DNA from: Cyanobacteriota bacterium | GTDB taxonomy: Bacteria; Cyanobacteriota; Cyanobacteriia; Cyanobacteriales; Nostocaceae | Length of the DNA: 64,000 nt | Assembly: GCA_046045965.1 (NCBI GenBank) | Contig: JBJOKS010000008.1 | Location: 1 to 64,000, forward strand | Reading direction: 5' to 3' | In this document: positions 45,229 through 48,782 of the stretch, piece by piece | Layout of the letters: each line of letters starts with the position of its first letter | Numbering within the stretch: position 1 is the stretch's first letter | Translations under genes and position numbers: made by a program | The notes under the pieces: generated by a model | Database searches by the model: none | What the model was told of the DNA's origin: nothing | The model's input: the letters and a program-made list of their open reading frames with translations, nothing else

Positions 45229-46071
45229 TTGTCAACACAACAATATAAAAAAGAGATGCTAACTGCCAACAACCAAATTTCAATTCAATACTTAAATCCA
45301 TCTCAGGAATTTGAAGCTTCAAAAATCCCGGCAAAAATAGATATCATTGGCTCTCCTGTTACTGCTTTACCTTTTGAGGTACAAATAAATATCATATTAG
45401 AATGGGCGATAAGTAAAGTCAGTAAAGTTATTTGCGTAGCTAATACCCATATGCTTGTGGAAGCTTATTGGCATCCAGATTTTTCCTCTGTTTTAAAGAG
45501 TGCAGATATTGTTACTCCTGACGGGATGCCGCTGGTTTGGATGTTGAAACTCATGGGTGCAGGTACTCAAAATCGCGTTGCGGGTGTGGATATTCTTTTA
45601 TCTTTGTGTAAATTAGCTCCACTCAGAGACATTAATCTTTTCTTCTTGGGTTCTGATGTAGTAATTCTAGAGAAGATGCGAAAGAATTTAGAGCGTGTCT
45701 TTCCGAATGTGAAAATTGCTGGAATGGAACCTTTACCATTTCGTCCACTCACATTGCAAGAGGATGAAGAGATTATCAAAAAAATTAATGACAGTGGGGC
45801 TGGAATAGTTTTAGTAGCTCTAGGATGTCCTAAACAAGAGTATTGGATGAATCAACATAAAGGCAAAATTCAGGCTGTGATGATTGGTTTGGGGGGAGCA
45901 TTTCCTGTCTTGGCAGAAAGCCATAAAAGAGCGCCCTATTGGATACGTCATTTAGGGGGTGAGTGGTTTTATCGTCTGATTCAGGAACCATTGAGACTAT
46001 TTAGTCGATACAGTACAACTATCCCAGTTTTTATCTGGCTGGCTTTAAAGCAAATCCTAAATTTAGCGTAA
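45229..46071 (+). CDS. WecB/TagA/CpsF family glycosyltransferase
   Basis: VTPDGMP, RVAGVD, ALGCPKQE, GLGGAF, RAP, EWFYRLIQEP.RL. Confidence 0.93.
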   Translation: MSTQQYKKEMLTANNQISIQYLNPSQEFEASKIPAKIDIIGSPVTALPFEVQINIILEWAISKVSKVICVANTHMLVEAYWHPDFSSVLKSADIVTPDGMPLVWMLKLMGAGTQNRVAGVDILLSLCKLAPLRDINLFFLGSDVVILEKMRKNLERVFPNVKIAGMEPLPFRPLTLQEDEEIIKKINDSGAGIVLVALGCPKQEYWMNQHKGKIQAVMIGLGGAFPVLAESHKRAPYWIRHLGGEWFYRLIQEPLRLFSRYSTTIPVFIWLALKQILNLA

Positions 46072-46224
46072 CTATTCAGGCCTCATTGGTGAGAAGTTAA
46101 GCCAGTAAATATTTTGTCACAAAGCTTTCCGAGAATTATTGAAAAAACCTGTTCAGACCATCGTTGAATCTGAGGAAAAGGAGGATTTTAGCACTAATTA
46201 TTTTAAATCACAAATTATGATTTA

Positions 46225-46353
46225 TAAGTAGTCGTGCAAAATAAATTTTATATTTGGGAGAGGGAACAGGGAACAGGGAACGGGGAACAGATAAGAACTA
46301 CAGAGATTTTTGTTGGTTTCAAAAATGTTAAATTAATTTTGCTCAGGTACTTA
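46225..46353. mobile_element. MITE-like element with imperfect TIRs and internal (AGGGAAC)n
   Basis: taagtagtcgtgcaaaataaatt ... aattaattttgctcaggtactta. Confidence 0.6.
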
Positions 46354-46464
46354 GCAAGCATTTGACTTTTGACTTTTGCTATACCTTCCTTTTGAGGGAA
46401 GAATCACCTGATTGAACAGACAGAAGATAAAGATGACTGTCTTTCAAGATGGAAATTATTTGCT

Positions 46465-46740
46465 ATGTCATCAATATTATTAGCAGTTCAAGCCACTGTC
46501 CCCAATACCGGAACTACTTGGAACTGGTCAGCAACACCAGTTATCATTGGCAGTTGTTTATTAATGCTTGTCCTTGCTGGTTGGTCTATCCGCTATCCCC
46601 AGGTAGGTCCAAAAATGCCTTTACCTTTCCCTGGACTTTTCAATCATCCTAGTGTTGCTACATTCTTAGCAGCGATGAGTTTTGGTCATATTGTCGGTGT
46701 GGCTGCGGTTTTAGGTTTGACCAATATTGGTGTTTTTTGA
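46465..46740 (+). CDS. psaK: Photosystem I subunit PsaK
   Basis: [37 protein letters not shown]. Confidence 0.92.
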
Positions 46741-46833
46741 CACTCCCTGGTCTAAAGACACGGGGATTCTTGGTTCAATGAGACCACTTAAACTAGACTC
46801 CTTGCGTTATCTAGCTCAGAGGTGGGACTCTCC

Positions 46834-46878
46834 ACGCCAGTTGCTTCAAGTCGGGAAACCCGCCCAACGCACTGGCTC
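46834..46878 (+). repeat. SDR5-like structured dispersed repeat nested in the IS element
   Basis: acgccagttgcttcaagtcgggaaacccgcccaacgcactggct. Confidence 0.65.
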
Positions 46879-47037
46879 CCAAGCGTTAACTTTCGGTCTG
46901 CCCGACCGTAGTTGCATGACTGCAAGTCCTGTTGAGCATGAAACAATTTGTTTCAAAATTCTGATTCGTCTAGCTCCTATAAATCTTTTACCTACTGCTA
47001 GGAAGAAACTAGAACAATGCAGTAGAACCGCATAGAT

Positions 47038-47082
47038 GAGGCAGTGCGGTCTTGGGGTCTCCCCAAGTAGAGCAACCGCCGT
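47038..47082 (-). repeat. Second SDR5-like repeat nested in the IS element
   Basis: Minus strand acggcggttgctctacttggggagaccccaagaccgcactgcctc has the same architecture as the 46834 copy. Confidence 0.65.
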
Positions 47083-47582
47083 TTAATTGTCAAGGTACAG
47101 ATTGCCGTTAAGCAGTTAGGTTTTTATACAGGTTGATTACCATTCCTGTTACAAGTAGTATAACACAAGTCGTTGGAGGCTAAAGCCTCTAACTGGCTTT
47201 CATCCCCGGCTTAAAAGACATTAACACCTAAAAATTTTGGGGATTTTTAGGTGTCAATTCCGGGGTTTTCAGCCTATTTTCTTATAAGAACTTGACAAAA
47301 ACACTTGGTGAATCAAATTTGTCAGGTGCTTTATTTTTATGGTGATCAGGAAATAGGCTGAAAACCCTCAAAATCTTATTTCTCTGTGTCCTCTGCGTCC
47401 TCTGTGGTTCGCTTTTCAATTACTTGTGCGTAAGTCCTGCGAAAATTTCTCTAATTTAAATCTGTTATAGCGCATCAGAGTAAATTAATTGTTTATTCTA
47501 GAAATAAGATCCCTAGTTTTGATTCATCAACTAGTGTTCATAGGTGAGTAATGTATAAAAACTAGATAAAGAAATTGATGTA

Positions 47583-48782
47583 ATGCAAAAAAATTGGCAA
47601 ATTGGATCTTTATTTGGCATTCCATTGTTTTTAGACCCGTTATGGTTTGTAATTTTAGGGTTGGCGACTTTAAATTTTGGGGTTGCTTACCAACAATGGG
47701 GAAATGCCACAGCTTGGAGTGCTGGACTGGTGATGGCACTGCTGTTATTTACGTCTGTGCTGTTACATGAGTTAGGACATAGCTTGGTAGCACAGTCTCA
47801 AGGGATTAAAGTTAATTCCATCACGCTGTTTTTCTTTGGTGGTATTGCGGCGATAGAGGAGGAGTCAAAAACACCGGGTAAAGCGTTTCAAGTGGCGATC
47901 GCAGGTCCTGCGGTAAGTATAGTCTTGTTTTTGCTGCTAACTCTAGGTTATAATGTCATTCCTGATACTACACTATTGAGTGTAATGGTGAGGGATTTAG
48001 CAAGAATTAACTTGGTTGTGGCTTTATTTAACTTGATTCCTGGTTTACCTCTGGATGGGGGACAGGTGTTAAAAGCAGCACTTTGGAAAGTTACAGGCGA
48101 TCGCTTTCAAGCGGTACATTGGGCAGCCCGGTCTGGACAGATTTTAGGTTATGGTGCGATCGCTCTGGGATTTGCGATAGATTTCTTTACCAGGGAACTA
48201 ATCACAGGTTTATGGATTGTACTATTAGGTTGGTTTGCAATTCGCAACGCTAACAGCTACGACAGTGTAACCACATTACAAGAAACCCTACTCAAACTAG
48301 TAGCTAGTGATGCTATGACCCGTGATTTTCGCGTAGTTGATGCAAATCAAACATTACGAGAGTTTGCTGACTTATATCTTTTAGAAACATCCTCCCCACA
48401 AGTTTATTTTGCCGCTGCTGATGGACGTTACCGGGGTTTAGTAAAAGTTGATGATTTGCGGACAACCGAAAGAAGTCAGTGGGAAACTGAAACTGTACAA
48501 AAAATTGTTCATCCCCTAAATACAATACCCACCGTTAGCGAATCAACTTCTTTAGCAGAAGTTATTAACAAGCTGGAAAACGAACAGCTACACCAAATCA
48601 CGGTACTTTCTCCCGCAGGTGCTGTAGCTGGTGTAATTGACAGGGGAGATACTGTTAAGTGTTTAGCACAAAAGTTAAATTTGCGAGTCACTGAAGCGGA
48701 AATTAAGCGGGTTAAAGAAGAAGCTAGTTTTCCTCCAGGGTTGCAACTAGGAGTAATAGCGAAGTCAGTAGGTGATAGGTGA
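47583..48782 (+). CDS. Site-2 protease (peptidase M50) with CBS domains
   Basis: LLHELGHS, AGP, FNLIPGLPLDGG. Confidence 0.93.
   Translation: MQKNWQIGSLFGIPLFLDPLWFVILGLATLNFGVAYQQWGNATAWSAGLVMALLLFTSVLLHELGHSLVAQSQGIKVNSITLFFFGGIAAIEEESKTPGKAFQVAIAGPAVSIVLFLLLTLGYNVIPDTTLLSVMVRDLARINLVVALFNLIPGLPLDGGQVLKAALWKVTGDRFQAVHWAARSGQILGYGAIALGFAIDFFTRELITGLWIVLLGWFAIRNANSYDSVTTLQETLLKLVASDAMTRDFRVVDANQTLREFADLYLLETSSPQVYFAAADGRYRGLVKVDDLRTTERSQWETETVQKIVHPLNTIPTVSESTSLAEVINKLENEQLHQITVLSPAGAVAGVIDRGDTVKCLAQKLNLRVTEAEIKRVKEEASFPPGLQLGVIAKSVGDR

Follow-up and report, generated by a model that had tools for sequence, protein, structure and literature searches.

What can a transposon-like segment without a protein gene do at the 3′ end of psaK? 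We examined a 64,000-nucleotide (nt) stretch of DNA from a Nostocaceae cyanobacterium (assembly GCA_046045965.1, contig JBJOKS010000008.1), called the window as a whole, in which a segment of this kind separates psaK from its terminator. A reading made from the letters of the window (the sequence-only reading) had proposed that the minus strand of this segment is a stand-alone gene for an omegaRNA, the guide RNA of the transposon-encoded protein TnpB, with its own promoter, a boxA-like motif, and a guide against the empty psaK allele. Alignments with other copies identified the segment as a 547-nt non-autonomous element of the IS200/IS605 family that lost tnpB. It is of the type of the palindrome-associated transposable elements (PATEs), which are protein-less IS200/IS605 derivatives (PMC3119063). 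Judged by such comparisons, it is probably a guide-RNA-only hitch-hiker that would use TnpB supplied in trans against the empty TTAT+psaK site. Positions are those of the window, and minus-strand positions are read from high to low. Contigs of the own genome are numbered C1, C4, and so on, the window lying on C8.

Borders and copies of the mini-element at psaK

A search of the own genome with positions 46740-47320 gave 33 matches, which were then sorted by finer BLAST. Six copies ran from end to end, namely C8 46737-47283 in the window, a second C8 copy outside the window, and one copy each on C18, C5, C21, and C34. In the alignment, TTAT preceded and GAGTGTCAA closed all six, and the outside flanks were unrelated. 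The flanks of the six copies and of three full-length TnpB insertion sequences (IS) of the genome parted exactly upstream of TTAT. All 30 copies collected from 25 genomes ended in GTGTCAA, and the sequences diverged beyond it. The left end was located in 21 of these 30 copies with a pattern that demanded TTAT, and this count is therefore not independent; because the pattern itself required TTAT, the evidence for this motif is that of the alignments of the six own copies and of the full-length TnpB IS.

The letters quoted in the sequence-only reading were found on the minus strand as described: TGTTATACT at 47165-47157, GTACCTTGACAA at 47098-47087, GAGTGTCAA reaching to 46737, and AAAACACCAATATTGGTCAA at 46736-46717. 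By the comparisons given below, none of these matches is due to chance. The reading had also postulated a TTAT target-adjacent motif (TAM) and element-free psaK copies, and such an empty site was present in two genomes of the same genus (G065 and G140). There, psaK (...GGTGTTTTATAG and ...GGTGTTCTGTAG, respectively) continued directly into the sequence that is found here past the left end, with no duplicated bases, indicating that the element inserted precisely and duplicated nothing, immediately after TTAT as read on the minus strand. The absence of the element from the orthologous psaK site in both genomes argues for recent movement.

The mini-element has no terminal inverted repeats, and a subterminal hairpin lies near each end. 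Its open reading frames (ORFs) of 52 and 102 amino acid (aa) residues had no Pfam match, and tblastn with five TnpBs found that just the last ~10 tnpB codons remain, in agreement with the earlier description of the element as protein-less. Two tetranucleotides at the right end, TCAA at the terminus and GAAT immediately before the hairpin, are similar to the cleavage-site and guide tetranucleotides of IS608. The features are listed in Table 1.

Table 1. Features of the mini-element and of the psaK locus in the window (R1 and R2, covariance models of the 3′ and 5′ RNA parts)
Feature	Position	Strand	Evidence
psaK	46465..46740	+	Pfam PF01241 (PSI_PSAK), E 3e-12; orthologues end ...NIGVL*
Flank predicted as guide, antisense to the last psaK codons	46717..46736	-	Flanks diverge here in 30/30 copies; unique in the genome
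Whole protein-less IS200/IS605-type mini-element, 547 nt	46737..47283	-	Alignments of six own copies and of 30 copies; empty site in same-genus G065 and G140
Right-end subterminal hairpin and terminal TCAA	46737..46769	-	Compensatory changes in 6/8 pairs (helix 11); same end on TnpB IS of the genome
3′ omegaRNA-type scaffold (R1), homologous to tnpB 3′ coding ends; split by a 45-nt small dispersed repeat at 46877-46833	46737..46927	-	R1 106.2 bits, E 1.6e-22
5′ RNA module (R2): H1 47149-47128, small hairpin 47114-47103, 12-mer, long double hairpin; split by a 45-nt repeat at 47081-47037	46977..47150	-	R2 90.4 bits, E 3e-14; covariation
boxA-like 12-mer GTACCTTGACAA, after boxB-like hairpin 47114-47103	47087..47098	-	32/32 members; rRNA spacers of G068; PMC8461337
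Extended -10 TGTTATACT; predicted start near 47150	47157..47165	-	Same position in 26/29 close copies, hexamers varying
Left end with long subterminal hairpin (47258-47220, terminator-like: hairpin and T-run)	47166..47283	-	Homology to full-length TnpB IS C22, C15, and C21
TTAT target/TAM, immediately 5′ of the left end	47284..47287	-	Divergence just upstream of TTAT among six own copies and three full-length TnpB IS; C4 IS too
Original psaK terminator, hairpin	47302..47328	+	Same hairpin directly after psaK in G065 and G140

The 3′ scaffold, the 5′ module, and the promoter

The TNB domain of TnpB is matched 11 times in the genome, and eight of these matches lie within open frames of at least 368 aa. 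The mini-elements share their ends with the full-length TnpB IS on C22, C15, C21, and C4. At the left, their first ~95-125 nt are homologous to the left ends of C22, C15, and C21 in the subfamily of the window copy and to that of C4 in the other subfamily, in which the homology to the C4 IS halts exactly at the -10 of the mini-element. TTAT stands 5′ of these four full-length IS as well. At the right, the tnpB frames stop 15-38 nt short of the terminal hairpin and TCAA that the mini-elements have as well. The last ~150 nt (~146 nt) of the element aligned at the DNA level with the 3′ coding end of the C15 and C22 tnpB genes, and the hairpins common to mini-elements and tnpB genes differ by compensatory changes.

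A covariance model (R1) built solely from 22 mini-element 3′ parts gave 18 matches at E <= 1 in the own genome, all spanning the whole model. Seven matches reached E 1e-22 or better, one for each full copy and one for a part-copy on C32. This part-copy retains the 3′ domain and the right end and is not matched by R2, the model of the 5′ module described below. R1 also matched the ends of intact tnpB genes on C4 (E 3.7e-18), C15 (2.8e-15), and C22 (7e-12), whose ORFs carry OrfB_IS605 and a Cas12f1-like TNB domain; weaker matches were found at C11, C7, C1, C21, and elsewhere. Among five distant genomes that are complete or near-complete (1 to 3 contigs) and all hold mini-elements, R1 lay directly behind the TNB domains of TnpB ORFs in four. 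The 3′ part thus belongs to the scaffold type encoded at gene ends by a TnpB clade. The resemblance to tnpB 3′ ends pointed out in the sequence-only reading, and the covariance-model check proposed with it, thus led to homology with the scaffold-coding ends of tnpB genes of the same genome.

The ~130-nt 5′ module is the most conserved part of the element, with a mean column identity of 92% versus 85%. What the sequence-only reading had described as "about 150 nt of non-coding sequence" is in fact this best conserved part. In the own genome, where 150 of ~3,150 first-look candidates were scored, R2 matched only the six mini-elements and none of the TnpB IS. A small ORF in the 5′ module was considered and rejected, since its ATG opens a frame of 6, 11, or 14 codons depending on the copy (by eye).

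The alignment of 22 insertion-free copies yielded a fold of 11 helices. The proportion of paired cells was 98.3%, compared to 89.5% in shuffled alignments; pairs with double changes numbered 23 versus 14.8, and the corresponding cells 118 versus 32.9. None of 500 shuffles attained the observed pairing and double-change values, and slid controls gave 9-26 cells. Compensatory changes also occurred in helices of the 5′ module, and distant members added some for the first hairpin. A single-sequence fold of the window copy (z = -3.7) paired its two inserted repeats with each other and is therefore uninformative on the native fold. The RNA gene so delineated consists of two parts and is ~300 nt long; in the window copy it measures 414 nt because of the two small-repeat insertions.

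Of 151 genomes sampled from the family, 93 contained the core of the mini-element. For the 5′ module the filters were stricter and 22 candidates were scored in each genome; it was detected in 67 of the 151 genomes sampled from the order. At all 28 distant loci examined, R1 followed R2 by ~30-55 nt, never with a gene between them, and the 5′ module occurred without a TnpB-type scaffold only in truncated copies. These comparisons place the mini-element in a mobile family that has copies across the entire order. Candidates for a full-length parent did not hold. At the G082 locus L072 (C1:2235400-2238400), tnpB seemed to stand between the 5′ module and the scaffold; what is seen there is a mini-element of the family split in its 5′ module by a different, nested TnpB IS with a 418-aa ORF. 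Five loci with short 3′ matches had no tnpB ORF of 250 codons or more, and a truncated copy in G068 had lost its 3′ part. Shorter derivatives also exist, of which L090 (G001 C70) is an example: such derivatives measure ~240 nt from left to right end and keep the last ~100 nt of the scaffold without the 5′ module. Three motifs of the 5′ module were found in none of the six supplementary files of PMC4734099 on multi-copy small RNAs of Nostoc 7120, whose tables may lack sequences.

In 26 of 29 close copies, the conserved block begins 6-7 nt after an extended -10 (TGnTAnnnT), and two others have TAnnnT only; upstream sequence was sufficient in 28 of the 29 and amounted to 4 nt in the remaining one. 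The -10 hexamers vary among these copies (TATACT, TATGAT, TATAAT, TATATT, TAAAAT, and others) while their place is fixed, which speaks for selection on promoter function. Of the distant copies, 28 in number, the extended -10 is present in 15; 12 others have TAnnnT only, and one has neither. A two-hexamer promoter scan did not call the extended -10 because no -35 is present. The mini-element therefore appears to carry its own promoter, as had been proposed, conserved in position among close and distant copies, with a predicted transcription start near 47150.

Four RNA-library runs from four studies, among 24 runs found, were compared with the window as contigs. In all four, contigs lay on 46737-47142; as contigs, they are silent on strand, transcript ends, and level, and DNA may be present in the libraries. 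Record 15 of run X2 (99 letters, 0 differences) spans the joint of the first small repeat and the 5′ block, and record 13 of the same run is also identical to the window copy. Record 1 of run X1, a 335-letter contig, matches 46450-46778 with 0 differences and spans psaK and the right end, which shows that this junction exists outside the present assembly. Records of X2 and X4 run from other flanks into 46737, with the same reservations as to strand and DNA, and joints in the metatranscriptome contigs correspond to relatives without each 45-nt insertion. The boxA-like 12-mer lies inside the covered part. The matched contig parts stop at 47139-47142, and in X4 Illumina adapter letters come next. 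Position 47142 also varies among copies, and assembly graphs branch there. The bins of the left end, 47161-47242, had no contig cover in any of the four runs, in a comparison whose 92% limit would exclude the left ends of relatives, and no conclusion is drawn from this gap or from the depth figures. The element sequence is present in RNA libraries, and no more is claimed from these contigs.

An element of this kind might be an inert, decaying deletion derivative of a TnpB IS, similar to a miniature inverted-repeat transposable element, with DNA ends that serve TnpA and RNA that is noise. IS605-type elements with internal deletions and fused ends are common (PMC3119063), derivatives as short as the ~240 nt of L090 and truncated copies in L069 do occur, the window copy has been invaded by two small repeats, and the nearest tnpA looks broken. 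However, TnpA needs subterminal hairpins only, yet ~300 internal nt keep 11 helices with compensatory changes; the promoter is held at one position while its letters vary, and the order of the two parts is kept at 28 of 28 distant loci. Nor is the 5′ module a leftover of the IS, since R2 matches none of the TnpB IS. We regard inert decay as very improbable.

The boxA-like 12-mer

The sequence-only reading had called the 12-mer boxA-like. By itself, the 12-mer of the window would be weak evidence. Across 32 family members it reads G-(T/A/C)-ACCTTG-(A/G)-(C/A/T)-AA, with the consensus G-N-ACCTTGA-(C/A)-AA and an ACCTTG core that is invariant in all 32. The sequence GAACCTTGAAAA has been named boxA of the cyanobacterial 16S-23S ribosomal RNA (rRNA) spacer (PMC8461337). 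The members match it at 12 of 12 positions in two cases, 11 in 12 cases, 10 in 17 cases, and nine in one case, and matches with no more than two mismatches are expected 0.04 times per 414 nt. In a complete genome of the same family (G068), GAACCTTGAAAA was present in all four rRNA spacers, which were located by pattern search, 2-3 nt after a 7-pair hairpin. Likewise, a hairpin of free sequence with 3-7 pairs (at least four in 28 of 32) ends 0-7 nt before the 12-mer in all 32 members, giving the order boxB-boxA. Most mini-element 12-mers depart from rRNA boxA at position 10, which is C, and at position 2, which is T or C. The family consensus, the two exact members, and the preceding hairpin indicate that the 12-mer is boxA-like in the family as a whole.

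The motif was absent from both strands of the four full-length IS of the genome, and a boxA-like match in the degenerate C11 IS sits within ~650 nt of unrelated sequence. No 16S rRNA 3′ end was found in the own assembly (92% complete, 107 contigs), and its rRNA operons seem to be unassembled.

TTGACA is the consensus -35 hexamer. The 12-mer could accordingly be the -35 of a second promoter; it could also be the pairing partner of the 3′-terminal UGUCAA in a pseudoknot-like closure, or the site of another protein. TTGACA acts as a -35 in the full-length IS C15 and C22 (TTGACA, 17 nt, TAnnnT, as read from the sequences), pairing between the 12-mer and the 3′ end is predicted by RNAalifold as well as by the single-sequence fold, and the 12-mer of the window agrees with boxA at only 10 of 12 positions. 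Against a -35, no -10 stands 16-18 nt after the 12-mer, that stretch being a covarying stem, and contigs of the RNA libraries extend upstream of the 12-mer. The predicted long-range pairing of UUGACA with UGUCAA was rejected because it is never compensated. Seven of the 32 members have a TTGAAA-type change (L111, L122, L123, and L124, and the three whose right ends were read, L096, L097, and L099). L097 and L099 have TTGAAA while their right end is still TGTCAA, and L096 has TTGAAA with TGTCAA in the flank just after the model match; TTGAAA against TGTCAA places a mismatch in the middle of a 6-bp helix. In L093, both sides are changed and the pair is not restored. The A/C alternation and the hairpin 0-7 nt upstream in 32 of 32 members fit rRNA boxA. 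A role of the 12-mer other than as boxA is thus possible, but we consider it rather doubtful.

In rRNA, too, a small hairpin and then G-A-ACCUUGA-A-AA-like letters stand near the 5′ end of a long, untranslated, structured RNA. In boxA-bearing CRISPR arrays, as is predicted here, the RNA made is a precursor of guide RNA (PMC7862264), and boxA upstream of CRISPR arrays raises guide-precursor levels (Stringer et al., cited in PMC7862264). In contrast to both, the motif of the mini-element lies outside rRNA operons and CRISPR leaders. A literature search for boxA together with TnpB returned, as judged by title, only unrelated genome reports. It is conceivable, and we put it forward tentatively, that the hairpin and 12-mer load NusB/S10-type factors for processive reading or co-transcriptional folding. 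More speculatively, the 5′ module could be a Nus-factor (boxB/boxA) loading site acquired by a guide-RNA-only transposon, turning RNA polymerase into an rRNA-type processive, RNA-folding machine that would provide a strong supply of correctly folded guide reaching into the flank and make the element a hyperparasite competing with full-length IS for TnpB.

A possible guide RNA for TnpB supplied in trans

The flank just past the right end supplies the candidate guide. AAAACACCAATATTGGTCAA is the reverse complement of the final psaK codons, and both the 20-mer and the 16-mer occur once in the genome. In G065 and G140, psaK closes with ...NIGVL-stop and passes straight into its hairpin terminator. 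The insertion turned the last PsaK residue from L into F, with a new stop codon, TGA at 46738-46740, provided by the element end, and displaced the terminator by 547 nt from the stop codon. The element probably aims convergent transcription at psaK. In another genome of the genus (G109, 99% complete), no match to the psaK query was obtained at E <= 1e-10, and the psaK paralogue may be absent or diverged there.

On the guide-RNA reading, transcription would start near 47150 at the extended -10, and RNA polymerase would pass the 5′ module with its boxB-hairpin/boxA-like signal and then cross the scaffold and the right end into DNA antisense to psaK. TnpB of an IS of the C4/C15/C22 type would bind the scaffold in trans, with the first ~16-20 bases of the flank as guide. 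Where TnpA excised the element from one chromosome copy, the restored TTAT+guide site would be cut and then repaired by recombination with a sister copy still holding the element. Such a homing or retention scheme has been described for TnpB IS and noted for PATEs (PMC10055086). Two features that it needs are in place: the TTAT TAM is common to mini-elements and TnpB IS, and intact TnpBs are present in the genome. Loading on TnpB, cleavage, and boxA function are what we infer from the sequences compared.

The RNA could instead function without TnpB, as an antisense or convergent regulator of its neighbor (here psaK) or as a 5′-module small RNA that rides a transposon. It would run antisense into psaK, no minus-strand terminator-like site was found in 46300-46737, and psaK is severed from its terminator; moreover, the 5′ module is both the best conserved part and absent from TnpB IS, and the G179 genome contains mini-elements and no R1-type TnpB match. 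However, the flanks differ in every copy, so that there is no common antisense target. The insertion is missing from two same-genus genomes that have psaK, which marks it as recent and not as a conserved regulatory arrangement, and the 5′ module is never without the TnpB-type scaffold save in truncated copies. A function independent of TnpB is therefore unlikely, and the use of TnpB in trans remains the reading that we favor.

Several observations weigh against this reading. G179 has four mini-elements and 18 TNB matches and showed no TnpB-linked R1 match at E <= 0.001. No relevant Rfam 15 match was obtained in 45500-48500 at E <= 1; the best lead, the TnpB-linked motif RAGATH-18 with the insertion-free C5 copy, reached 23.8 bits versus a gathering threshold of 44.9 (E 0.51), and two insertion-free copies gave nothing at threshold. 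The RNA runs consist of contigs without strand or transcript ends and may include DNA, and in a different family member, one X2 contig (loose end at 47151) continues past the predicted start on its upstream side. As to mobility, the genome has four Y1_Tnp matches at three sites, two of them at C11 beside a matching right end, and in this 92%-complete assembly of 107 contigs the only tnpA adjoining a matching right end, that of C11, is broken by a stop or frameshift; the family may be immobile in the present genome. The boxA match of the window copy is incomplete, as noted above, and Nus factors have no obvious role in a cyanobacterial RNA of ~300 nt.

The window copy itself may also be weakened or impaired by its insertions. 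The R2 score is 90 bits, compared to 145-166 in the other five own copies, and the R1 score is 106, compared to 148-173 in the C32 part-copy and four own full-length copies that lack the scaffold insertion; the C18 copy shares this insertion and scores 104.7 with R1. Both repeats are hairpin-forming, ~45 nt long, and placed where a hairpin could bulge from the fold. On the minus strand, the repeat in the scaffold (46833-46877) recurs at least 10 times elsewhere in the genome, including once within the C21 TnpB IS at its left end, and that in the 5′ module (47037-47081) recurs at least twice.

Other mobile remnants were noted in the surroundings. Past the psaK terminator, an inverted fragment of the left-end start (GGAAATAGGCTGAAAACCCTC) at 47350-47372 on the plus strand forms, together with the left end of the mini-element (47265-47283, minus strand), an inverted repeat of ~100 nt and looks like a solo left-end remnant of another element; the sole Rfam match at this inverted repeat was a chance match of a miRNA precursor to its hairpin. 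Minus-strand positions 47380-47430 carry repetitive ACAGAGGACGCAGAGGACACAGAGA-type sequence with a spurious, QRT-rich ORF of 45 aa, probably another dispersed repeat. Elsewhere in the own genome (G000), C11:22304-23762 holds an IS605-type element whose divergent tnpA is interrupted by a stop or frameshift and whose tnpB is reduced to a remnant of 150 aa. Between this remnant and a right end of the window type lie ~650 nt of unrelated sequence with a GTGCG-like start, which could be an intron or another mobile insert.

A guide-RNA-bearing PATE is a known kind of element, protein-less IS200/IS605 elements with omegaRNAs used in trans having been described (PMC10055086). Like PATEs, the mini-element has no terminal inverted repeats, no target duplication, and near-terminal hairpins, and like the PATEs of Haloquadratum it is itself a target of smaller mobile repeats (PMC3119063). 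Unlike the PATEs described there, it has an internal promoter and a ~130-nt conserved 5′ RNA module, kept order-wide. As in the omegaRNA of TnpB (also called reRNA), the right-end scaffold shares sequence with the tnpB 3′ end by overlap or homology, the predicted guide is the DNA immediately outside the right end, and the TAM is the transposon target motif (PMC8612924, PMC10055086); unlike there, the scaffold of the mini-element lies outside any gene, the enzyme would have to come from another locus, and a 5′ module is added. Unlike the curated families, its RNA reaches no Rfam threshold. Three features appear to be new to print, in a literature search that covered neither bioRxiv supplements nor the extended-data figures on PATEs: the promoter dedicated to the RNA, the RNA gene of two parts kept across the order, and the 5′ module with its boxA-like motif.

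For the host, the effect of this copy is a changed last residue of PsaK and a psaK gene parted from its terminator. If the guide-RNA reading is true, TnpB guide RNAs would persist as independent, promoter-equipped genes that parasitize the nuclease of other transposons, and guide-only elements could exceed every single TnpB IS in age and distribution. The family supplies many natural pairs of TAM and guide for tests of loading in trans. Its boxA-bearing 5′ module offers a testable device to express guide RNA at a high level or in correctly folded form, which is relevant to the transcription of untranslated structured RNAs in cyanobacteria and to how omegaRNA expression cassettes are designed. 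The loading of Nus factors, if it should prove true, would for the first time connect rRNA-style antitermination with the guide RNAs of transposons, a connection maintained across the whole order.

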